From the IMG/VR virus record IMGVR_UViG_3300027996_003878: a DNA stretch of 64,000 bases, one strand, 5' to 3'. Of the stretch, positions 25,124 to 38,005 are shown in pieces (within the stretch, counting starts at the first letter, position 1; each line of letters begins with the position of its first letter). Origin of the DNA: a virus. Its lineage: Duplodnaviria; Caudoviricetes. Under the pieces are notes generated by a model, which saw only the letters and a program-made list of their open reading frames with translations, ran no database searches and had not been told where the DNA came from. The position numbers were made by a program, and so were the translations under genes.

Positions 25124-26836
25124 TTAGAAAGCTGGAGGTGAGGGAAGCTCAGACTCTCCTCCAGCTCCAGGAAGACCTGCGGCATTTGCCTCCTCTTCCT
25201 CGCCAGCAACGGGCTCAGTGATTTCATCTGAAGAAGAAATAGTGCGTAACTCATTTAAGGGCATCTTTGAAAGAACAAGCTTCTCTCTAGCCAAAATTGC
25301 CTCTTGAATAGATTCATCCTTCATTTTTCTTTGCTCATCCTCCCAGTCCAATCCCAAAGACCGATAAAGGGTTTGAATTGAAACTCTTCGAGGTTCGCCT
25401 GTTAAATTTTGAAGAACATTTATGTAGTCACCCAAATCAAATAACGACATGTGGTTCCATTCTACCTTTGGAACAATCAATATCTTTTTGCCATCTTTGT
25501 ATTCATAAAAGTCATTTATTTTAGAAATAGGCGCAAATATTTTACGTCGCAGCCATGAGCTTATCATATTCCTAAATTGCATGTATCGCTGCCTTAAGAC
25601 ATCTAAGGCAACGCCTCCATTTGCATACGTAACATCAGAGCCGCCATCCATCACAACAGAAGGAACCATCAGCCCTGTATAAATCTCTTTCAAAAGCTGC
25701 TGAACATCACCATTAATATCAATTATAGATCCTGATGCTCCAACTCTATCAATCTGAACGGCTTCATGAGTAAATATTTTAAAGTCTTTATCATACTGAG
25801 CTTGCTCAAACACCTGCCTCCAAGCCTCAAGGTCTGTTGGGCTGGGTTTATAAGAATCATTACCAACTTTAACCACAGTCAGTGGATTGATTAAATTCGC
25901 AGCTTGAGCAAACTTAGACTCCCTAAGTTGATCAAAAAGCATTAAAGTTCTGAATGAAGATACAATCAACCCCGTCCCTCGAACCTCATAAGGGCTAATC
26001 CTTCGAGCTATATGAGAACAATAAAAATTACTTAGAGGGATATTTTCACCACGTCGCACATGCTCAATAATACTACTATCAAGACGCTGACGCTGTTGAA
26101 TGTCAGAAGGTCTATTGGAATTCACAATTCTTCTTAAATTCTCATCAGGCCTTAAACTTATGATAGGCTCGCCCGCAACAACGGAGTGTTTCACCACTAT
26201 ATAGTCAGGATTTTGAATGGTGAGCCGGCTCCACTTACCCATACCTTCATTTAATTCTGCATAAACAAAAGCCTCACCTAAAACCCAATACTCTTGAGCT
26301 ATTTGAGTGCAAACATTTACAAGATTTAATTCATCATTCATTTCTTGAAAGAATCTTTGAACCTTTTCATTCTTACAAGTAATATTTAATTTAGAAATAG
26401 GATAAGTAGAGTGCAAAGAGATAGCATTCTGCACAATCGGATTCAAAGCAAAAAAAGCTCTACTCCAAGCATTTATAGTAGCACGATCTCTGGGCAGGTT
26501 GAGATTGCTAGTCAACCAAAGGGGGCTGTAAATTTCTGGTATTTGCCTTACAGTGCCACCAGAACCCCTCCAGCCGCCACCTCCAGAATTCGCAGCTCCA
26601 TCATCGGCATTTTTACGAAACGCCCTCATATTTGAGATAACGTTCCCAGCATCAGTAGAAGCAAACTTATCAATCATATAACCCGAGCCGCCTTTATGCT
26701 CTCGAAAATGACCCGCCGAAACTTCCTCTTCCAAAACACCTCTTCGATATTGACTAACCGATTTAGCCATATGTGGCGATACTATTGAAGGAAGCTTGCG
26801 CTCATTTAAAAATTTTTCAGAATTTGTCTCAGCCAT
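25124..26836 (-). CDS. Portal protein
   Basis: 570 aa. R.FF...P.V..AI.LH..YP, EY..LGEAF, W..L.I.NPD, YE.RG..L, YANG.VAL..L.QRY..FR..I..WL..KIF: typical large-phage portal pattern. Lies downstream of the terminase. Confidence 0.82.
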   Translation of the reverse strand: MAETNSEKFLNERKLPSIVSPHMAKSVSQYRRGVLEEEVSAGHFREHKGGSGYMIDKFASTDAGNVISNMRAFRKNADDGAANSGGGGWRGSGGTVRQIPEIYSPLWLTSNLNLPRDRATINAWSRAFFALNPIVQNAISLHSTYPISKLNITCKNEKVQRFFQEMNDELNLVNVCTQIAQEYWVLGEAFVYAELNEGMGKWSRLTIQNPDYIVVKHSVVAGEPIISLRPDENLRRIVNSNRPSDIQQRQRLDSSIIEHVRRGENIPLSNFYCSHIARRISPYEVRGTGLIVSSFRTLMLFDQLRESKFAQAANLINPLTVVKVGNDSYKPSPTDLEAWRQVFEQAQYDKDFKIFTHEAVQIDRVGASGSIIDINGDVQQLLKEIYTGLMVPSVVMDGGSDVTYANGGVALDVLRQRYMQFRNMISSWLRRKIFAPISKINDFYEYKDGKKILIVPKVEWNHMSLFDLGDYINVLQNLTGEPRRVSIQTLYRSLGLDWEDEQRKMKDESIQEAILAREKLVLSKMPLNELRTISSSDEITEPVAGEEEEANAAGLPGAGGESELPSPPAF

Positions 26837-27078: not shown

Positions 27079-28371
27079 ATGAAAAAAACTTATATACTAG
27101 ACACTTCAATTATTATAAATGACCCAAATTGCTTAAATAGCCTCAAAGGAAATCAAATTGTTATACCAATAGATGTACTTAACGAGCTGGACAAACTTAA
27201 AACCTTTCAAGATCAAGTGGCAAAAAACGCCAGATTATTTATCCGTAAACTAGACGAATTAATAAAATTAAATCAAAGTAATAATTTAAAAATAGATGAA
27301 GATACATCATTAGAAATTGATACAGAAAAATACAATAACAAATTTGAAGATGAGGACATAATAGATAATAAGATTATATCTTGTGCATTTTATCAAAATT
27401 TAAAAAAAGAAAATGTAATATTACTTTCAAATGACATCAATTTAAGAGTTAGAGCTACCGCGTTTAAAATTAAATCAGAGGGATACAAGAAAAAAAGTAA
27501 TAACGCGACTGATTTATATAAGGGACACAGAGTTATACAAGACGACGAGCTTGGTAAAATATTATGTGAAGAAAAATACTTAACCATTTCAGATTATGAA
27601 GATCTAGAATCACTTAACCCTAATGAATTTGTGAATTTCGAAACATCAAGCGGTAATGGCATTTGCATCGGAAGAAGAATAGAGGATGCGCTTTGTATGA
27701 GAAAGCCGTCAGTCCTATGGGGGCTAAAGTCCAAAAATAGAGAGCAGGCATACGCTACTGATTTGCTTATGGATCCATCAATTCCATTAGTTACACTTAC
27801 GGGTAAAGCCGGAACTGGAAAGACAGTACTAACTGTAGCAGCTGGTCTCGATTCGGTCATAAATAAAAAAGCTTACAATCAATTGATTGTCTATAAGCCC
27901 ATGGAACCTGTCGGCAGAGAGGTAGGATACCTGCCAGGCAATTTGGAAGAAAAATTAGACCCTTGGGCTGAAGCATTAAAAGACAGTTTAAACTTTTTAA
28001 CATCCTCCGGCAATGGAAGCGGCAGAAAAAGCAGCTGGAAAGACAAGTTAAGCCAATACACCGATCAAATTACATTCGAAGCTCTTACATACATTAGAGG
28101 GCGAAGCATTACTAATGCTTACATAATTATTGATGAATGCCAAAACACAACAAAAGAGCAGATTAAGACTGTTTTAACAAGAGTTGGAATGAATTCAAAA
28201 ATAGTACTACTAGGGGATATTGATCAAATAGACCACAGCTATCTTGACGCTGTTAATAACGGTTTGACTTACACCATAGAAGCGTTTAAAGATTCAAATT
28301 TATCGGGGCATGTGACGCTTGAAAGGGGTGAAAGAAGCGATTTGGCCACAGAAGCAGCATTAAGATTATAA
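27079..28371 (+). CDS. phoH: PIN domain-PhoH ATPase fusion (PhoH2-like)
   Basis: N-terminal YILDTS...ELD...D..I...SNDINLR PIN; GKAGTGKT Walker A, RGRS, IIDECQN, GD..QID. Confidence 0.9.
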   Translation: MKKTYILDTSIIINDPNCLNSLKGNQIVIPIDVLNELDKLKTFQDQVAKNARLFIRKLDELIKLNQSNNLKIDEDTSLEIDTEKYNNKFEDEDIIDNKIISCAFYQNLKKENVILLSNDINLRVRATAFKIKSEGYKKKSNNATDLYKGHRVIQDDELGKILCEEKYLTISDYEDLESLNPNEFVNFETSSGNGICIGRRIEDALCMRKPSVLWGLKSKNREQAYATDLLMDPSIPLVTLTGKAGTGKTVLTVAAGLDSVINKKAYNQLIVYKPMEPVGREVGYLPGNLEEKLDPWAEALKDSLNFLTSSGNGSGRKSSWKDKLSQYTDQITFEALTYIRGRSITNAYIIIDECQNTTKEQIKTVLTRVGMNSKIVLLGDIDQIDHSYLDAVNNGLTYTIEAFKDSNLSGHVTLERGERSDLATEAALRL

Positions 28372-29443: not shown

Positions 29444-31345
29444 CTATCTCTTAACTGCCTCCATGCCTGGGACATAACCTACAACAACAGGCAATGAACT
29501 CTTACTTTTAGCATTTTCATTGATTAAATTAGGATTGTGAATTGAAAACGCATTTGTTATATCAAACTTATAAGCTAAATAGGCATTCAACATAGCCATA
29601 AATCCATCATTTGGAGTTGATCCTTTTACGTAACGAATGCCAGTATACCCAGCTCGATCAACTTTGGGCTTAATCTCCATAGAGCAACAATGCTGAACTA
29701 GCCACCCGACCTTTTCATAATCTCCAAATGGAAATCTTATCTTTCCTTGCTTCATTAAATCATAAAGCTCTGCAATGTAATAATCTCTCTCAAACATAAT
29801 AGTACTTGGAAAGAAATCTGTCTTATATTTTATATGGCCATTTAGCCTAGATACAGCCTGGCTCCCTAAAAACTTCTCGCCAAACTCACGCTGCAACACT
29901 TCAGTAAGGTCATTGGCAAAGCCAATATCTCCCACCCCCAAAGTAACGCTATATTGCCGATAAATTTGCTCAACAATAGCCCTTTTACTTTCAAAATCAT
30001 TTTTCTTTAACCTTGTTGCAAAGTCTATTGATAAAATATGAGGGCCATCTGCCACTAAAATGACTGCACAACTATATGATTGACCTTGTTGAGATCTTTT
30101 TCCGCCAGCTCCAGTATCAATATCAACCTTTTGACCCCAGTCGCAACCTAAATAAACTTTTTTATTCTCATTGTAGGATATACTGGCTCTAAATTTCCTT
30201 TCACGATCTGCGCAATGCTGATCTATTTGCTCTGGCGTAATCGGAGAGGCATCGCCTGAAAAAAACTCACCCAAAACCTCGTTTTGATAAGCCCTTTCCG
30301 TATTGATAGGATGATTTTCAGGCTTTTCAGACAGAATTTTTTCTTTTGTAAACTCTGGCATATATAATTGGTTTATATGATAACCAACAAATGAAGCATC
30401 TGGATTATCATTAAAAGCAATCCACTTACCTCGCTCTGCCGCCTGCCTTTTATCTTGCTCATGACCGCAGTGGGTGCATTTTACAATAAAACCATGCAGC
30501 CAAATTTTCTCCCAATCACTTCCAGGGCCATACAAAGGAAATGTTTCCTTGCAGCTCTCGCACCCCAAATGAAAATATTGTTGAGAAGAGGCGTTCCATA
30601 TGTTCCAATACTCTGACCCTCTTTGTTTAGGCGTTCCAAAATAAACCTGGATACCCTCGCCAACCCTGCCATACTGAGCTTTTGCTAATGTCTTAGTTGC
30701 ATTGCCTAATGCCTCGCCCTTCATGTCCTGAACTTCGTCAAAAAACAAAACATCAACAGTTCTACCGCGCAATCTGTCCCCATTTAATCCGGTTGACTCA
30801 ATCCATATATGATTACCACCTGCAAACTGTTTGAATTGCAAAGAATCATTTGATGAAGTGGATGTATCTAACTTGGCTTGCAAGAATGTTTTATTTCCGA
30901 AGTTAGATTTAGAATTATTATAGTCTTTATAAGGCATTGCGCTAGCAATCATAGAATTTAACTTAACCTTAGTATAGGCATAAGCTAATTCTAATTGAGG
31001 AAAGCAATGCATAATTCGAATCGGAGGCCGATTCGATGCGCCAAAAGAGCCTGACGCAACAAAAAACAATTCAAGCGCAGCTGCCATTGTAGTTGCGCCA
31101 ACCTGGCGTCCTTTAACAAGGACTACAGGTTTCGAATCTTTTTCTAAAGATTTTAAACCAATGTATCTATAGATATCAGCAAACGGCTTATAGCCATTAC
31201 CATTTAGTCTAAAAGGGCGGCCATCTAATGTTAAATATTTTTCACAAAAAGCAACAGGATCAATTGCTAACAGATTTTCTTTAATCTGAGAAAACAGATC
31301 TTCCTTGCTGCCCTTTTTTATCTTAGAGGCGGCATCTCTTTTCAT
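29444..31345 (-). CDS. terL: Terminase large subunit (GpA-like, with zinc ribbon)
   Basis: KGRQVGATT Walker A, LRG.TVD.LFFDEVQD Walker B, GTPK coupling motif, CESC/CTHC ribbon, nuclease LGCDWG and PNDGFMA. Confidence 0.88.
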   Translation of the reverse strand: MKRDAASKIKKGSKEDLFSQIKENLLAIDPVAFCEKYLTLDGRPFRLNGNGYKPFADIYRYIGLKSLEKDSKPVVLVKGRQVGATTMAAALELFFVASGSFGASNRPPIRIMHCFPQLELAYAYTKVKLNSMIASAMPYKDYNNSKSNFGNKTFLQAKLDTSTSSNDSLQFKQFAGGNHIWIESTGLNGDRLRGRTVDVLFFDEVQDMKGEALGNATKTLAKAQYGRVGEGIQVYFGTPKQRGSEYWNIWNASSQQYFHLGCESCKETFPLYGPGSDWEKIWLHGFIVKCTHCGHEQDKRQAAERGKWIAFNDNPDASFVGYHINQLYMPEFTKEKILSEKPENHPINTERAYQNEVLGEFFSGDASPITPEQIDQHCADRERKFRASISYNENKKVYLGCDWGQKVDIDTGAGGKRSQQGQSYSCAVILVADGPHILSIDFATRLKKNDFESKRAIVEQIYRQYSVTLGVGDIGFANDLTEVLQREFGEKFLGSQAVSRLNGHIKYKTDFFPSTIMFERDYYIAELYDLMKQGKIRFPFGDYEKVGWLVQHCCSMEIKPKVDRAGYTGIRYVKGSTPNDGFMAMLNAYLAYKFDITNAFSIHNPNLINENAKSKSSLPVVVGYVPGMEAVKR

Positions 31346-31356
31346 ATTAATCTTTC

Positions 31357-32013
31357 TTACATTTTATTTGGCATAAACTGCTTTAAAAAGTCTGTATTAT
31401 CTGCATCTGGATGCAAATCTAAACCAACACCTCTACCCAAATGATGATTAACTGATTGCTGACTTGTATTGCTGACAATGGATGAAATAATATCGCTTAT
31501 TAGCTTTGCAGCGTCATCATTATTTACGTGCTCAGGACTGCACTCCCTTGCAAACATATCTAAAATTTCACATTGAACAGCGGGCACTGCAATGTGGCCG
31601 TTGTGAGTATTCACCAGATTTTTTACAAATGCAATAACTCGCTCTTTAATATTATCGTCATCGCTAAACACGCATGCCACAAACGCTTTTTTTGAATTAT
31701 CAGCTTCTTTGTATCTTTGATTCGACTCAGAGTTCACTCTTTTTAAATACTCTGACAATCCCGTCCTGCGGTGCAAGTCCTCCACCGCCCCTTGTACGCT
31801 CGAAAAAACAGGACGACCGCTAACAATAGAAGATATTTGATCATAAATAGATTTATCAGAGGATGATCGCTGGCGAGCAACCTCTACCGCCGTAACAGCT
31901 GCCGGATCTGCAAGCTTATTTAGTCGATCAGCAAAATCATCTAACCAATCAACACGTTTACTAGACTCACGATCAATATAATGATTATTAGAGATTTTAA
32001 ATATTTTACTCAT
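31357..32013 (-). CDS. Hypothetical head-region protein
   Basis: 218 aa, co-oriented ORF. Confidence 0.75.
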   Translation of the reverse strand: MSKIFKISNNHYIDRESSKRVDWLDDFADRLNKLADPAAVTAVEVARQRSSSDKSIYDQISSIVSGRPVFSSVQGAVEDLHRRTGLSEYLKRVNSESNQRYKEADNSKKAFVACVFSDDDNIKERVIAFVKNLVNTHNGHIAVPAVQCEILDMFARECSPEHVNNDDAAKLISDIISSIVSNTSQQSVNHHLGRGVGLDLHPDADNTDFLKQFMPNKM

Positions 32014-32019
32014 AATAGA

Positions 32020-32859
32020 TTAACCCGGATAGTTAGCCACAAAATCAAAATTATCAGTTGAAGCTGTATCAACCTCTTCTCGCCCTTTACCTCGGTCCCA
32101 CCGCATGGCATAACCCATATCACTGAGCAGCTGCATGATGGAGGCCTGCTCCCGACCTGTTAGCTCATATTTATCGCACATATGATCAAACGTATCTTCA
32201 ATGTCTTTACCAGAGCTAACCATTGAGTTTATACACGTCCGCGCCACATATGACTCAAACATGGGCACACAAACAACAAATGAAGCGGCCTTTGCCTTTT
32301 TAACCATACCATCAGCAGCTTCAGATTTTTTTCTCTTTTTACGGTGAGGGTATTTGTTATCGCGAATCTTGGTCAAATGCTCTTCAAGCCTTTTTATTCC
32401 ATCTTGGATTTCATCACGCGCTAGCTCAACCGCATCAATGACAATATTATTATCTAAATCCATTCTTACTGCTTTGGATATTTCCGAATCAAGTTTTTCA
32501 AGATAAGCAATTGCCCTCTCACAGCCAGAGGTCTCTTTACCCGTATGACTGGGTATTGAGCTTAATTTATCCCTTAACCAATCTAAAAAGTTGATTACCG
32601 TCCATTTCCAAGGGTCATCCTCAACCTCAACTTCCTCATCTTCAACGATGAGGCTGCCTGGTTCGTACTCTCCATCACTTCCAGGAATAGAGCCTAACAT
32701 TTCAGATAAATTACCTCGCACGTCCTCTTCCTCTACCTCCAAATCACCGTTATCATGAACATAAAATGACTCATTAGAATCGGGAGAATCCACGTACATC
32801 AAATCCTGAGCTATTAAACTTTTGAATTTATTATTTTTTGAAGATTTACTAATAGACAT
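32020..32859 (-). CDS. Hypothetical head-region protein
   Basis: 279 aa, acidic N-terminus, MVKKAKA site. Confidence 0.75.
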   Translation of the reverse strand: MSISKSSKNNKFKSLIAQDLMYVDSPDSNESFYVHDNGDLEVEEEDVRGNLSEMLGSIPGSDGEYEPGSLIVEDEEVEVEDDPWKWTVINFLDWLRDKLSSIPSHTGKETSGCERAIAYLEKLDSEISKAVRMDLDNNIVIDAVELARDEIQDGIKRLEEHLTKIRDNKYPHRKKRKKSEAADGMVKKAKAASFVVCVPMFESYVARTCINSMVSSGKDIEDTFDHMCDKYELTGREQASIMQLLSDMGYAMRWDRGKGREEVDTASTDNFDFVANYPG

Positions 32860-32941
32860 AAAATAACCCTGACAATAAGAACTATATTCGATTATATTAC
32901 TTTTTATGCAATGATTTTTACTTGCAATAACGCGATACTAT

Positions 32942-33469
32942 CTAATCGGAGCCGTCTTTTTTTATTTTATTTACATCTTCCTCTGATATTTTCGTTAACT
33001 CATCACGATCATCTGATCCTTCTAAACCAAACAATCCATAATATCTATGCCTGCTCTTACCGCTATCCGAATAATAACCCAACGGATAACTAAAAAGACC
33101 ATCAACCCCTATGCCAGAGAAAAACCTCGGATAATAAGCCGAACCCCTTAATGAGCCCTTTTCATGCACTCCGGCGGCAACAGAGCCCCAATTGCACTCA
33201 ACAATATCTTTATTTGACTCTATCAAATTGCCAGCAAATTTACATATTTCATTTGGACTGTTATAGATAAGCAAATGAACATTTGCCGAGGCAATCATAT
33301 CTTTCTCCCAATCAGACACATCTTTTCCTAAGATAGCAAGAGGCGCCATTTTATCGACAAGTCTTCCCGCCGTTTTACATGCATGAGAAATGGGCAAACC
33401 AAAAGGACAGGGATTATCATTGTCATCCCTAAGCACGGCCAGCCTAACTATAGTTTTATCTTTGGGCAT
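32942..33469 (-). CDS. Cys-rich hypothetical protein
   Basis: CPFGLPISHAC...CKFA...ECNW; 175 aa. Confidence 0.7.
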   Translation of the reverse strand: MPKDKTIVRLAVLRDDNDNPCPFGLPISHACKTAGRLVDKMAPLAILGKDVSDWEKDMIASANVHLLIYNSPNEICKFAGNLIESNKDIVECNWGSVAAGVHEKGSLRGSAYYPRFFSGIGVDGLFSYPLGYYSDSGKSRHRYYGLFGLEGSDDRDELTKISEEDVNKIKKDGSD

Positions 33470-33531
33470 TTTAACTCGTCAAATTTGCGGCATTTTATCT
33501 ACATCATCACTAACGATATAATAGATAAAAC

Positions 33532-33762
33532 TTAAAGCTTTTTTTCGCTTCTTCCGCTTTTTTCTGTTTTTTTTCGCTTTTTTCTTTTTTCGCTAAGAAA
33601 GTCAGCTACACTTTTATATTTATCCATTGGCCCTGAATACAAGCCTGGTCCGGGAGTGGCTCCTGTAGGATCTTCGTGTTGAGTGTAGTCATAGTTTCTA
33701 AAAAAAACTTCAGGCCTAACGTCTAAATCAACACGCTCATTTCCCTTTTTTGCCCGCTTCAT
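33532..33762 (-). CDS. Small basic hypothetical protein (76 aa)
   Basis: ATGA overlap with the upstream nucleotidyltransferase stop. Confidence 0.65.
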   Translation of the reverse strand: MKRAKKGNERVDLDVRPEVFFRNYDYTQHEDPTGATPGPGLYSGPMDKYKSVADFLSEKRKKRKKTEKSGRSEKKL

Positions 33763-34520
33763 TGTTTCCTTGCCAAGTTCTGAGCCATACCCTTATAAAG
33801 ACTTGGAAGGGCCGGTATATAGTCCCAAAGATTCATTTCATTAATCAAATGAATGACTTTTTCTTTGTCATATTTTATTGATTTGTTGAGAACCTTTACA
33901 AGGTATCTAACCTTAACTCCATCAGCTATTCGTTCTGGATTAGCTCTAACCCAATCAATAATCCTATCATCAACATCAAAATCTAATTTTGCTGCAATAT
34001 AAATAACTCTAACAATTCTTTTATGCTGACTTCCTAATGTGATTTCTGGAGTAAGATTTGTTCTCACAATACGATCTTCTATATCTCTTAATCCTCGTCC
34101 AAGCGGATCTAGTATATTTTTAAGATCCATAGTCATCAAAAGAGAATTAACAGTAAAATCTCTACTATACAGCTCACGAAGCATGTCTGTAGGATTTTTT
34201 ATATTTAACTGCATTAAATAATAATTTATACCAGGCACTTTAAAGTTACTGGAAAAGTCTAACTTCAAATTGGCTAACTTCATCTGCGAATGACCATCAG
34301 GCATTACCTTGTAACTGCTCACAAAAGGCCAATAACGTTCATTTATTAATTCTGACAGTCGAATGACATCTTTATCACCCGTTGTAATATCAACATCGGT
34401 GAAATCATTAAATCTTTTCAACACTCTATCACGCGGAAGGCCTCCACAAACGTAAGGAGCTGATAAGCCGTTTTCAGAGGCTATATCTTCAATAGATTTC
34501 AACAACGAGCTAATTTTCAT
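33759..34520 (-). CDS. Class II tRNA nucleotidyltransferase / poly(A) polymerase family protein (short, atypical)
   Basis: CGGLPRD, DVD catalytic pair, SRDFTVNSL, ILDPLGRGLRDI. The canonical EDxxR motif is replaced by SQHKR. Confidence 0.8.
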   Translation of the reverse strand: MKISSLLKSIEDIASENGLSAPYVCGGLPRDRVLKRFNDFTDVDITTGDKDVIRLSELINERYWPFVSSYKVMPDGHSQMKLANLKLDFSSNFKVPGINYYLMQLNIKNPTDMLRELYSRDFTVNSLLMTMDLKNILDPLGRGLRDIEDRIVRTNLTPEITLGSQHKRIVRVIYIAAKLDFDVDDRIIDWVRANPERIADGVKVRYLVKVLNKSIKYDKEKVIHLINEMNLWDYIPALPSLYKGMAQNLARKQ

Positions 34521-34525
34521 ACAAA

Positions 34526-36343
34526 TTACCTCGTTGATTTTAATTGCTGTGGCACCGGAGCTACAGTTACCGGCTCCTCTATTTCCTGAAGATCTGCCTC
34601 AGGGCTTTTTGGCAATGAATCTTGCGACTTTTCTTGATTATCTTGCCTTTTCTTTTGCTCAGCTCTTTCCAAGTTAGCCTGGACCGCCGCAGGATCGACT
34701 TTATCTGCCTCAGAGTCCTCTACGTCAATCTCCAAATCAATAACATCTTCCTGAGGCACCTCTATCGACCCTCTAAGCCTGGACAAAATGCCTTCAATAC
34801 GACTCAAGCCATATTGATTTGACTCTAAAGAAGATCTAGTCGCCTCTGACAAAGCTGGAAAAAATGACGCAATGCCAAGCTTATCCATCATCAAATCAAC
34901 AAGTGACAATTGCCTTGATATCTCTCTATTTTTATACAAATTAGACAAAGCCTCTAATTTGGCAATAACATCCTCGATGGTTACATTCTCTAAATCAAAA
35001 TCTTTATCGCCCCCATTAGACTGCTCACTAACTTCAACAACTTCGTCAGCAGCAACATCCGCAGGTTCTTCTAAATCATCCTCGGAAACCTCAACAGCCT
35101 CAACGGGAGCAGGAGTAGGGGTAGGAGTAGGAGCAGGAGTAGGAGCAGGAGTAGGAGCAGGAGTAGGGGTTGGTAGAACGGCCTCCTGACCCTCTACAAC
35201 AATTATATCAGAACCATCAAAATTACGCTCTTCCTCATTTTCTTGTTTAGACGCAAACTTAACAAAGTTATCCAAAACATTATCATCTGAGCTTCTAAAG
35301 AAATCAGACTCTGCAAGAAATTTAAAAAATATACTCTCTTTAACAAGACCATCTCTTTTAAAACAATTGGCCTGTTTAATAATTAAATCATCAAACAAAC
35401 TAGCATTTTTATTCTTACCGCAAGTAGTGAAATAAGTACTTAAACTATTAATACCATCAAGAAGTTTCTTTGTGCAATCTTCTCCAAGATAATTTGTCGC
35501 CGGGCCTTCTTGAAGTAATTTTCTAATAGAATTAAATCTACTTATAACTTTCTTTCTAAGCTCTGCTGTTTTTTGAGCCTCTGTTTGCGCTTGAGTTTCA
35601 ACTTTAACATCAAGCTCTGCCTCCAGCCTTTCTTCAGGTTTGAAAGAATTCAAATTAGAATTATCAACTCTTTGCGGACGTTGGGGGCCTAAATGCTGAA
35701 GTGGAATGCCGGCAGTGCCATCCCCAACCATTAAATAATCATAATTATTTGCAGTTTTATATTTCAATTGAGCACCTTCGTCATAAAAAGACATCCAATA
35801 CTTAAAATCTTTGATTTCCATATCATCCCAATGAGCTGTTACTTTTTTAAATGAATCATTAAAAGAATGCCCTTGCTGTAATAGCATTCTCAGTCCTTGC
35901 ATAGAAGAGACCCATTTTTGTAAATTATAAGGACTTGCGATATAGCCCCCAAAGCCCCCTTGAGGATATGCTGTTTTTTTAATAGGTATGTTTAATTCGT
36001 TCAAACTATTAGCCACAGCTTTATGAAATTTAGAAATAGTATTAATTGGATACTTATCTCTATTTTTGTAAACTAAACTTGATATCTTTGCTCTCCGCGC
36101 TGGAGAAAACTCTACCCCTGACAAGTCTCGTGCAATTACAGGGGCATGAAGCAATGAATACATAAATATTTTATGATCATTTGGACACGTAACTCCAATA
36201 GAAGTCATTGCTTTTGATTGTCTTATCATCACATCTTTCAACTTCTCAGGCAAATCATCAATTCGATTCCGAATAAGCTCTTTAAAATAAGAGTTCACAT
36301 CGTCCAAATTAAAAGATTTTTTGTTAGTAGCTTTCATTTTCAT
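34526..36343 (-). CDS. Large hypothetical head-region protein with a Pro-Thr/Ala linker
   Basis: 605 aa; four K-x-A sites; PTPAP repeats. Confidence 0.75.
   Translation of the reverse strand: MKMKATNKKSFNLDDVNSYFKELIRNRIDDLPEKLKDVMIRQSKAMTSIGVTCPNDHKIFMYSLLHAPVIARDLSGVEFSPARRAKISSLVYKNRDKYPINTISKFHKAVANSLNELNIPIKKTAYPQGGFGGYIASPYNLQKWVSSMQGLRMLLQQGHSFNDSFKKVTAHWDDMEIKDFKYWMSFYDEGAQLKYKTANNYDYLMVGDGTAGIPLQHLGPQRPQRVDNSNLNSFKPEERLEAELDVKVETQAQTEAQKTAELRKKVISRFNSIRKLLQEGPATNYLGEDCTKKLLDGINSLSTYFTTCGKNKNASLFDDLIIKQANCFKRDGLVKESIFFKFLAESDFFRSSDDNVLDNFVKFASKQENEEERNFDGSDIIVVEGQEAVLPTPTPAPTPAPTPAPTPTPTPAPVEAVEVSEDDLEEPADVAADEVVEVSEQSNGGDKDFDLENVTIEDVIAKLEALSNLYKNREISRQLSLVDLMMDKLGIASFFPALSEATRSSLESNQYGLSRIEGILSRLRGSIEVPQEDVIDLEIDVEDSEADKVDPAAVQANLERAEQKKRQDNQEKSQDSLPKSPEADLQEIEEPVTVAPVPQQLKSTR
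35106..35165. repeat. 12-bp tandem repeat (ggagcaggagta) encoding a (PTPA)n linker
   Basis: Five consecutive 12-nt units, one variant. Confidence 0.9.
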
Positions 36344-36425
36344 TTAAAATTAAAAAATAATGCTTTTTAAATAATTATAAACATCTACACTATTAAGTAT
36401 ATCAATATATGACTAGGGGCAACTA

Positions 36426-37157
36426 TCAGTCAATGTTGGTAATTTTTTCATTCAGCTTCGTTGCCTCTGCCAATCTTCTATCAACTGTAAGTTTTTCTTC
36501 CTGCGGTGGTTTTAACTTGGCTAATCGCTCTGTTAAAAGCTCAACAAACAAAAAAGAAACTTCTGGATCAAAGTGAGTTAATGTTTCTCTTATAACATCT
36601 TGAAAGATAGCCGTGTGCTCTTCAACCGCCTGTATTGTGACGTTATGTTGTATGATTTGATCTGGAGATTGATTTATAATTTTGTCATATTTATCAACTG
36701 CATTGAACAACTGATCAAACCATCTTATTAGAACCGTATCGCCCTTAAAATCTTCAGGATCTTCTTGGATCTTATCAAATACCTGCTCCGCACGATCTCT
36801 AATGAGCGTAATAGTTGACACTAACATTTCGCGAATATCAAGCTCTTTATCAGCGATCTGATTAAGCCTCTCTCTATAAGTTTTATTATTTAAAAGAGAC
36901 TTTGATACTTTTTTATTTAACGTTGCGCCATTTTTAGTATCACTTAAATCAACAGCAAAGCGATTATAAGTATCAAGATATTTGCTATTTACAAAATCTT
37001 TTAATATTTTAATAGATAAAATTAAATGTTTTTGCTCTTTGTCTGGATATTTTAATTTTAACCACTTATTAATTTCTTTAGGAGACGCGCCAGAGACTAA
37101 CTTTGATATTATCTCCTCACCATTAGGGTGGTCTGTTATTGATGAAAAATCAGACAT
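36426..37157 (-). CDS. Hypothetical protein, candidate terminase small subunit
   Basis: N-terminal HTH-like segment, central helical hairpin, then an IIQHNVTIQ beta-strand. This layout is typical of TerS, but no specific motif is present. Confidence 0.35.
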   Translation of the reverse strand: MSDFSSITDHPNGEEIISKLVSGASPKEINKWLKLKYPDKEQKHLILSIKILKDFVNSKYLDTYNRFAVDLSDTKNGATLNKKVSKSLLNNKTYRERLNQIADKELDIREMLVSTITLIRDRAEQVFDKIQEDPEDFKGDTVLIRWFDQLFNAVDKYDKIINQSPDQIIQHNVTIQAVEEHTAIFQDVIRETLTHFDPEVSFLFVELLTERLAKLKPPQEEKLTVDRRLAEATKLNEKITNID

Positions 37158-37213
37158 ACATCAAAACAATTTCAAATTTTAAATTCTTTCTTACTTGCTT
37201 ATGAAAAGTATAA

Positions 37214-38005
37214 TTACTTCTCAAGCTTAGAATCTAACGAGGCATTTGATGAAAGTCTTTGATTACGATCTGTAAAAGACATTCCCTCTAGCCTACGATC
37301 ATACAATGCACGGGTTTGCTCAGCAACGTCACTACCAGGAACCTTGTTACCCTTAAGTGTAGTAAATCCACTGCTATAGTTATAGATCTTATGATCCATA
37401 CTACACTGAAAAACAGTATCCGCAATACGCGCCATCTGAGCGCCAGGATGATCTGGACATGTTCTCGTAGAAAGAGCAGTCTCAAGAGGTCGATAAGTTT
37501 TAAACCTATTTTCTATCAATTCGGCTGTATTCTTGACATCTAGAGCTTTGTCAGACTCTTCTCTAGCTCTTGTATAAGCTTCATCTCGCTGTTCGCTGCG
37601 AAGTTTAGCTCGAAGCCTGTCTATCTCTTTATCCTGAGCTTCTTTAAACTTTAAGCGTTCTTCCGCTGCATTCAGCTTCATTAGAAGCTGATCGATGACA
37701 GACGCCTGTCTAACTAAAACAGGATCATCACTTTTATCAAACTTATTCGCTACAGCTACAATCGCCTCTAAATCCTCATCATACAAATCATCTATTGACT
37801 TTTCAGCCATGACCTCTATACCATCAGCAGCCTTATTTAATATAGAATCAACAGTCACCAAAACTGAGGCTACATGATTAAGCAGATCTTCATTGCCTGT
37901 TTCTTCTGCTGCTATTATAATTGGATTCTCAGACAAATCAGTACTGATTTTTTCTGAAAAAATTCTAAGCAGATCAGCTACTTTAACAACTTTTTCATGA
38001 CTCAT
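37214..38005 (-). CDS. Hypothetical protein with a C-terminal zinc-ribbon-like motif
   Basis: TCPDHPG...FQCSMDH; 263 aa. Confidence 0.75.
   Translation of the reverse strand: MSHEKVVKVADLLRIFSEKISTDLSENPIIIAAEETGNEDLLNHVASVLVTVDSILNKAADGIEVMAEKSIDDLYDEDLEAIVAVANKFDKSDDPVLVRQASVIDQLLMKLNAAEERLKFKEAQDKEIDRLRAKLRSEQRDEAYTRAREESDKALDVKNTAELIENRFKTYRPLETALSTRTCPDHPGAQMARIADTVFQCSMDHKIYNYSSGFTTLKGNKVPGSDVAEQTRALYDRRLEGMSFTDRNQRLSSNASLDSKLEK

Follow-up and report, generated by a model that had tools for sequence, protein, structure and literature searches.

What does a class II nucleotidyltransferase do once the domains that bind tRNA are gone? This question is raised by an open reading frame (ORF) in IMG/VR virus record IMGVR_UViG_3300027996_003878, of which a stretch of 64,000 nucleotides (the 64-kb window) was analysed. 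The source is a giant marine phage, and the encoded protein, here called the short nucleotidyltransferase, is about half the size of a CCA-adding enzyme. A preliminary description had presented it as a CCA-type enzyme with a rewritten nucleotide-templating motif. We find that it is a member of the class II nucleotidyltransferase superfamily and that a large clade of huge phages has it as a core gene, fixed ~3 kb upstream of the terminase. By its sequence it appears to be a diverged paralogue of the CCA-adding enzyme and is predicted to be active. The reading that we prefer, tentatively and with somewhat less than even confidence, is that it would act on RNA 3' ends as a minimal nucleotidyl transferase of A/C type, would not count to CCA, would be assisted or tethered by a partner protein and expressed with the packaging genes, and would possibly be carried in the virion. 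Three features that were absent from the preliminary description outweigh the templating motif, motif D: a Ser in motif B, a partner of 76 residues and the core-gene status.

Fold, active site and nucleotide choice

Against the Pfam PolyA_pol head domain (PF01743) the ORF scores 43.3 bits (cut-off 23, E 5.8e-11), and it matches PHROG 2244/24229, annotated 'tRNA nucleotidyltransferase'. Its AlphaFold2 (AF2) model has a predicted local distance difference test score (pLDDT) of 94.5. Foldseek matched this model at probability 1.00 to 6q52, 7oqx and 1miv, with template-modelling scores of 0.71-0.73 by query (TMq) and ~0.5 by target (TMt), and further to 3h37, the human structures 1ou5 and 4x4w, and E. 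coli poly(A) polymerase I (PAP I). The superposition is restricted to the first ~240-250 residues, the head and neck, of CCA enzymes that are 370-420 residues long. The body and tail domains, which bind the acceptor and TpsiC helices of tRNA, are absent; the protein ends after the neck, and the earlier remark that the protein has 253 residues and no tail was correct. The N-terminal ~25 kDa is the conserved part common to CCA enzymes and poly(A) polymerase (PMC3925840), and because the structural match covers only head and neck, the short nucleotidyltransferase equals this part. The protein is basic, with an isoelectric point (pI) of 9.1. A chance ORF is excluded by the invariant catalytic residues and by the size of the family: one database search returned 169 homologues of ~250 residues at 43-55% identity, 144 clusters (50% identity) at E<=1e-30 came from a profile search against 1.8 billion representatives, and IMG/VR holds 223 loci with the short nucleotidyltransferase, many of them on contigs of 200-480 kb. 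The ORF and its active-site elements are as follows.

33759..34520, minus strand: ORF of the short nucleotidyltransferase, 253 residues; a head-and-neck-only class II nucleotidyltransferase by PF01743, AF2 and Foldseek
34428..34445, minus strand: first part of motif A, GGLPRD (residues 26-31), triphosphate binding; G26, G27 and R30 invariant in the family alignment
34389..34397, minus strand: second part of motif A, DVD (residues 42-44), two metal-binding carboxylates; D42 and D44 invariant
34242..34268, minus strand: strand LKLDFSSNF (residues 85-93) with the third carboxylate, D88; D or E in 117/117 clusters
34173..34241, minus strand: equivalent of the flexible loop (residues 94-116); ordered helices at 98-104 and 112-118 in the AF2 model, pLDDT >90
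34146..34166, minus strand: motif B, SRDFTVN (residues 119-125); Ser instead of the first Arg of the canonical RRD
34083..34109, minus strand: motif C, DPLGRGLRD (residues 138-146); D138 and D146 invariant
34017..34031, minus strand: motif D, SQHKR (residues 164-168), at the place of EDxxR by HMMER alignments and the family survey
33879..33911, minus strand: motif E region, VRYLVKVLNKS (residues 204-214), degenerate; aligned to SRERIGVEVDK of 9ns2

GG.PRD, DVD and SRDFTVN had been called intact, and their positions and invariance across the family bear this out. The accessory elements have fared differently. The family-specific SSNF, which lies within an invariant DFSSNF, occupies the place of the BxA motif of canonical enzymes; in the profile alignment F-K-V lies under R-R-E of the Aquifex enzyme, and BxA is not kept. 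The family alignment has no conserved Arg and no invariant basic residue in the loop region (residues 94-116). At motif B the short nucleotidyltransferase reads ELYSRD where canonical enzymes have DxxRRD; Ser holds the first position in 114/117 clusters (124/127 in another count), and canonical phage paralogues have RRDLTIN. Motif E, previously suspected to be degenerate, is so indeed: (K/R)-Y-x-x-x-K aligns to ERxxxE, which amounts to a charge reversal.

Published work gives these parts distinct tasks. BxA positions the primer for A addition, RRD serves ribose recognition, motif E lends stability to motif D and possibly contacts the primer, and the C-terminal part of CCA enzymes holds the tRNA elbow (PMC2910056, PMC3925840). 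The Glu of EDxxR has been proposed to form a salt bridge with the loop Arg, levering the pocket from C to A (PMC2910056; PMC11784652), and both partners of this bridge are missing in the short nucleotidyltransferase. Because body and tail, BxA, the loop Arg and the Glu, the first Arg of RRD and motif E have been lost, we infer that the protein cannot measure tRNA or count through C-C-A, and the proposed mechanism would do without either.

At motif D, HMMER places S164-Q165-H-K-R168 under E-D-x-x-R of the Aquifex A-adding enzyme (4wby, 1vfg), and the same register is obtained with S. pombe-type cca1/cca2 (9ns2, 9ns4), so that the reported SQHKR at the expected site of EDxxR is confirmed against four structures. 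The templating Arg is present in 120/120 close homologues and in 113/117 clusters. The Asp position is D in 53, N in 38, Q in 28 and S in 1 of the close homologues; among the clusters it is D in 62, N in 29, S in 10, Q in 6 and another residue in 10. The Glu position is never E in the 120 close homologues, and in the 117 clusters it is E in 4 and D in 34. A tree of 119 members shows no fewer than 8 interchanges among D, N and Q, of which supported branches force at least 3; the templating Arg is constant throughout this tree. More distant members carry (A/D)DPRR at motif D, so the family seems to have drifted stepwise from EDxxR. Within the family motif, x[D/N/Q]xxR, SQHKR is one of the permitted states and no one-off rewrite. 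The change reported in the preliminary description is thus real, and its reading as a local 'rewritten template' was overstated, since the change is a family trait in which the Arg is kept.

In EDxxR the 4-NH2 of CTP or the 6-NH2 of ATP donates a hydrogen bond to the Asp, and N3 or N1 receives one from the Arg (PMC3925840). In E. coli PAP I the variants E211A and D212A keep >90% of AMP incorporation and only R215A destroys specificity (PMC2532741). The E164D, Q and G variants of the human CCA enzyme work, E164G with full CCA addition in vitro, and no replacement of D165 or R168 survived selection, Asn being in the library (PMC11784652). Since D, N and Q all retain a carbonyl acceptor, selection of A/C is likelier than selection of U/G, for which the Arg donor would be expected to clash with N3-H of U or N1-H of G. 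The switch of specificity toward U/G that had been suggested was rejected: the Arg is invariant, and D, N and Q keep the hydrogen-bond acceptor and interchange freely. In the mechanism that we propose, binding of ATP and/or CTP would be retained, and untemplated A and/or C would be added to RNA 3' ends with one fixed specificity, in the manner of a poly(A) polymerase or of a plain end-repair enzyme.

Two known enzymes of this kind are instructive. PAP I (PcnB, 3AQK) has a homologous N-terminal ~25 kDa and does not count; its specificity rests on the motif-D Arg, with Glu and Asp dispensable (PMC2532741), which matches the conservation in the short nucleotidyltransferases. Unlike the phage protein, PAP I keeps EDxxR and RRD and has a body together with RNA-binding domains at its C-terminus. 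The A-adding enzyme of Aquifex aeolicus (1VFG, 4WBY) is the best PDB sequence match of the family profile (E 1.8e-18) and has a single specificity, but it keeps EDxxR, RRD and the flexible loop, and its body and tail measure the acceptor-TpsiC helix, whereas the phage protein is without EDxxR, RRD, loop, body and tail.

Canonical CCA enzymes in related genomes

Compared with CCA-adding enzymes of class II from Geobacillus stearothermophilus (1MIV/1MIW), Planococcus halocryophilus (6Q52) and Thermotoga maritima (3H37), the short nucleotidyltransferase has the same head-and-neck fold and the common GGxxRD, DxD, third carboxylate, motif-B RD, motif C and motif-D Arg; it differs by SRD for RRD, x[D/N/Q]xxR for EDxxR and a late position at the side of the terminase. 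Models of full-length enzymes do not recognise it. It fails the NCBIfam CCA equivalog NF009814 (51.9 bits against a cut-off of 290), which the full-length phage paralogue L081 passes with 321.1 bits, and it likewise fails the PcnB models TIGR01942 (27.5 against 305.65) and NF008634 (22.1 against 702) and the A-adding model NF041569 (26.7 against 1440).

The short nucleotidyltransferase was present in all 14 large related genomes searched, eight of which carry a second PF01743 gene (411-613 residues, E 1e-30 to 1e-41). Among four such genes inspected, three encode GGCVRD, RRDLTIN and EDGLR (411-415 residues) and the fourth, L084, encodes 613 residues with DDPLR. The other six genomes have the short form only; of the seven genomes with a completeness of at least 96%, four are in this set. 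With the short form in every genome and the second gene in 8/14, the canonical enzyme is optional and the short one constant; the idea that the short nucleotidyltransferase is the phage's sole CCA enzyme was rejected on the same grounds. That huge and jumbo phages carry CCA enzymes has already been described (PMC7162821, PMC7824862). These enzymes belong to the same phage clade and the same superfamily, and both forms probably have to do with RNA 3' ends; the canonical ones have 411-415 residues with RRDLTIN and EDGLR, pass the equivalog in the one case scored (L081) and are optional, whereas the short form is core.

In the relatives G001-G003 the canonical cca gene lies at a constant 29-30 kb from the short nucleotidyltransferase, on the opposite strand. 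A tblastn search did not find canonical cca in the 64-kb window, which covers the ~4-6 kb region equivalent to the G001-G003 site, so this phage may be of the short-only type. Related huge phages (G002-G005, loci L090-L119) bear 18-56 tRNA genes, and among 68 tRNA genes sampled the 3' CCA is encoded in 46 and not in 22, or about one third. The window itself contains no tRNAs or Rfam RNAs.

These data bear directly on the possibility that the protein is a true minimal CCA-adding or repair enzyme, whose basic partner replaces body and tail for tRNA binding and which provides phage and host tRNAs with normal CCA. Such a role would fit the retention of the templating Arg and of an Asp-like residue, the replaceability of the Glu of EDxxR in the human enzyme (PMC11784652), the six short-only genomes (four of them at least 96% complete) that nevertheless carry tRNAs, the third of sampled tRNA genes without an encoded CCA, and the natural fusions, described below, in which the partner module stands at the body/tail place. 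It fits less well with the canonical CCA enzyme that coexists in 8/14 genomes, with the absence of BxA, the loop Arg and motif E (needed for or implicated in A76 addition and primer handling), and with a score of 52 bits against the 290-bit cut-off. Moreover, an Asp-to-Asn change was not recovered in A- or CCA-repair selections (PMC11784652), the host enzyme can serve phage tRNAs, and the late packaging-block position is unlike that of canonical phage cca (29-30 kb away and on the opposite strand in G001-G003). We regard a minimal CCA enzyme as unlikely, though less so than the other alternatives. The earlier suspicion that this is no ordinary CCA enzyme therefore stands: the protein fails the equivalog, is without body, tail, BxA, RRD, the Glu of EDxxR and motif E, and coexists with the canonical form. 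The part concerning U/G does not stand.

Terminase-side locus and partner protein

The surroundings of the short nucleotidyltransferase comprise the following elements.

29444..31345, minus strand: terminase large subunit (TerL); PF05876, phrog_675 at 3e-58
31357..38005, minus strand: conserved syntenic block upstream of TerL, in the order p263-p243-p605-short nucleotidyltransferase-p76-(p175)-p279-p218
33532..33762, minus strand: p76, the partner, 76 residues, pI 9.8; its start overlaps the stop of the short nucleotidyltransferase (ATGA)

In the window the distance from the short nucleotidyltransferase, which is upstream, to TerL is 2.4 kb; next after TerL come the portal (25124-26836) and the prohead protease. 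To count loci independently of seeding by the nucleotidyltransferase, we used TerL-seeded loci with at least 5.5 kb upstream (n=45); 44 of the 45 have the nucleotidyltransferase upstream, at a median of 2.9 kb before TerL. The block neighbours were found in 65-77 of 80 nucleotidyltransferase-seeded loci, and the gene order of the block was confirmed on 8 large contigs. Searches of Pfam, NCBIfam, PDB profiles and the ESM Atlas returned no relatives of the block neighbours, p605, p279 and p218 included. The position beside packaging and head genes, which the preliminary description had found odd, is thus both real and conserved.

A role in morphogenesis or packaging has accordingly to be weighed. 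The enzyme might add nucleotides to terminase-cut genome 3' ends as a protection, or act on an RNA or nucleotide cofactor of the packaging machinery. The fixed distance from TerL in 44/45 loci inside a clade-specific block and the loss of the tRNA-binding body and tail are in line with this, and the Ser in place of the first Arg of the ribose-recognising RRD (114/117) could relax the choice of sugar or primer. Against it, the RD of motif B survives together with the remainder of the ribonucleotide pocket, a shared function does not follow from synteny by itself, and a fusion to a HAD/polynucleotide kinase (PNK)-phosphatase-like domain (see below) points to RNA ends. Class II enzymes are not known to act on DNA ends, and a packaging role seems to us improbable.

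The partner p76 has a core of the form F.RNYD.Y...GPG.G.Y..M.KYKSV.(E/D)F, with near-invariant Tyr and Ser, followed by a K/R-rich tail. A hidden Markov model of the core module detected it directly downstream of the nucleotidyltransferase, on the same strand, in 63/80 loci and fused to the enzyme in 6; no copy was found elsewhere within 10 kb on either side of the nucleotidyltransferase in the 80 loci, and the whole 64-kb window contains one match. In 17 proteins the motif occurs in at least two copies. A generic capsid-targeting tag for several cargoes was considered and rejected, as there is a single match in the window and the module lies only beside the nucleotidyltransferase in the 80 loci. 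In the fusions, which include P0058, P0073, P0086 and P0113, the module occupies the place of body and tail. A folded substitute for these domains docked on the neck is unsupported by the AF2 model of P0058, in which the pLDDT of the module is 36-64; in this model the partner module behaves as a flexible appendage. The slot of p76 can also be filled otherwise: in a 435-kb relative (L049; G005:C1:332101-333329; L084, L086) the 613-residue PF01743 protein, with RRDLTIN and DDPLR, stands directly downstream of the short nucleotidyltransferase, so that two paralogues lie side by side.

An exclusive partner also invites the idea that the enzyme is a protein nucleotidyl transferase that places AMP or CMP on the Tyr or Ser of NYD.Y...GPG.G.Y...KYKSV. 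All 69 ORFs with the motif stand beside the enzyme or are fused to it, 17 proteins have more than one copy, the motif contains the near-invariant Tyr and Ser, the RNA-primer-handling motifs of the enzyme are lost, and Pol-beta-fold nucleotidyltransferases of conflict systems have been grouped with protein-modifying domains (PMC5512222). On the other hand, AF2 gives no confident placement of the tail in the active site, and the basic character of both enzyme and partner is what one expects of nucleic-acid binders. No precedent is known for a PF01743 class II enzyme that modifies proteins, and we consider modification of the partner very improbable. That the protein is a catalytically dead structural or decoy protein of which only the fold is used is hardly credible, because, even though several accessory motifs are degenerate, the carboxylates, GGxxRD, RD and the templating Arg are (nearly) invariant over ~150 clusters at 43-55% identity, as expected of an active site that selection maintains.

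Proposed role and neighbouring genes

Further hints come from long forms of the family, which make up 39/150 clusters, measure 290-1117 residues and have the nucleotidyltransferase at the N-terminus. The extensions recognised with Pfam and PHROGs are an M15 peptidase in 2 members, a phage lysozyme in 1 and a PcfJ-like domain in 1; one further extension is the HAD domain of 'Swiss Army Knife' RNA-repair proteins, with a match also to a polynucleotide-kinase PHROG. L124, which is 96% identical to P0199, is a fusion of nucleotidyltransferase, M15 peptidase and lysozyme, and its slot is orthologous, between a p605-like gene and the p175/p279/TerL genes. Cell-wall hydrolases fused to effectors in a late-gene context have been read as delivered 'polyvalent' proteins (PMC5512222). 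Relatives of the nucleotidyltransferase likewise head long multidomain proteins of up to 1117 residues in a late-gene context; unlike the polyvalent proteins, the enzyme of the window is a separate single-domain protein. By analogy, the hydrolase fusion in the same slot suggests virion delivery of the nucleotidyltransferase, on few cases, and the HAD fusion, a single case, suggests work on damaged RNA 3' ends. A nucleotidyltransferase beside a PNK-phosphatase-like gene (L121) was set aside, being of the RRD type, more canonical and in a different context, so that its support for RNA repair is only indirect. One long member, P0240 (910 residues), has three PolyA_pol head stretches and weak HD and tRNA_NucTran2_2 matches and apparently comprises several nucleotidyltransferase units.

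Taken as a minimal A/C-type RNA 3'-end transferase, the short nucleotidyltransferase would contact its substrate, or be tethered, through the basic partner module encoded directly downstream. A weaker step of the proposal is that the protein may be loaded in the virion and delivered with the DNA; equally weak is the step by which it might act at the start of infection on host or phage RNA, for example on tRNA 3' ends. Immunity that cuts the CCA tails of tRNAs exists, as exemplified by Cas12a3 (PMC12851939), and clipping of this type is a plausible selective reason for 3'-end repair.

Several observations weigh against this proposal. CCA-tail clipping leaves unexplained why the short gene, as opposed to the canonical one, is core, and a core gene in a packaging block would fit morphogenesis too. 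In the AF2 model of the natural fusion P0058 the module is not docked on the enzyme (residues 249-305 have a pLDDT <50, the last helices one of ~62), so an RNA-binding role of the partner is a guess. In 40/63 of the separate partners the module heads a protein of >200 residues that is apparently of low complexity and acidic. Because Asn was never recovered in the selection with the human enzyme, the N and Q forms may bind nucleoside triphosphates (NTPs) in another way. The hydrolase fusion was found in only 2/39 long forms and the HAD fusion in 1. Finally, no close homologue was found in cultured phages, the GenBank phage set or BFVD. Cultured phages in BFVD do hold other, shorter head-only nucleotidyltransferase-like proteins (173-220 residues), annotated as tRNA nucleotidyltransferase; examples are those of Acinetobacter virus fBenAci002 (184 residues), Pectobacterium phage PP2 (181) and Providencia phage PS3 (186), with weak matches (TMq ~0.4).

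Class II CCA enzymes are the textbook case of template-free, sequence-specific polymerisation, and the roles of their parts are known mostly by mutagenesis. The short family is a natural deletion experiment, in which the ~25-kDa core has been kept by selection in hundreds of huge-phage genomes, and in which Asn or Gln can take the place of the templating Asp, a substitution unrecovered in laboratory selections. It thereby offers a compact enzyme in which NTP selection can be studied apart from the measuring of tRNA. Fold and superfamily were known already. We found no description of a head-and-neck-only SRD / x[D/N/Q]xxR subfamily, of its core status beside the terminase, of the private partner motif or of the hydrolase fusions. 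A fixed terminase-side gene with a private partner and occasional hydrolase fusions points to an undescribed nucleotide-addition step in infection or assembly. More specifically, the enzyme and its exclusive partner might together constitute a core module of huge-phage infection that has not been described before. This would be either a minimal RNA-tailing or tRNA-end enzyme, delivered by the virion and acting ahead of phage gene expression, or a system for nucleotidylation of the partner; in this strong form we think the idea quite unlikely. If it held, the natural D/N/Q variation would in either case mean that the 'uncompromising' Asp of EDxxR is dispensable outside CCA counting. Were an end-repair enzyme delivered, it would represent a novel form of counter-defence against the cutting of tRNA CCA tails; were the partner nucleotidylated, the CCA-enzyme lineage would have its first activity directed at a protein.

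Promoter and terminator scans of the window remained at shuffle level. Among the neighbours, p605 (34526-36343, minus strand) has a charge of about -22 and a Pro-Thr/Pro-Ala repeat linker (PTPTPAPTPAP...), and its only family matches are spurious low-complexity ones to surface proteins. The gene after the partner ORF, p175 (32942-33469, minus strand), encodes a Cys-containing protein with homologues in only 20/80 loci, and in some relatives it is part of far longer proteins (974 residues in L049). As its homologues are few and differ in length, it marks a variable slot inside an otherwise rigid block. A PhoH-like ATPase gene (27079-28371, plus strand; phrog_2765, E 1e-102) is the only large plus-strand ORF (at least 200 residues) between the portal and TerL genes and may be an inserted auxiliary gene. 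The TerL gene itself varies among relatives: the TerL ORF of L040 has 1333 residues, and the TerL matches of L147, L187 and L193 span 2.3-2.8 kb. Such doubled or stretched TerL genes may reflect an intein or another insertion.

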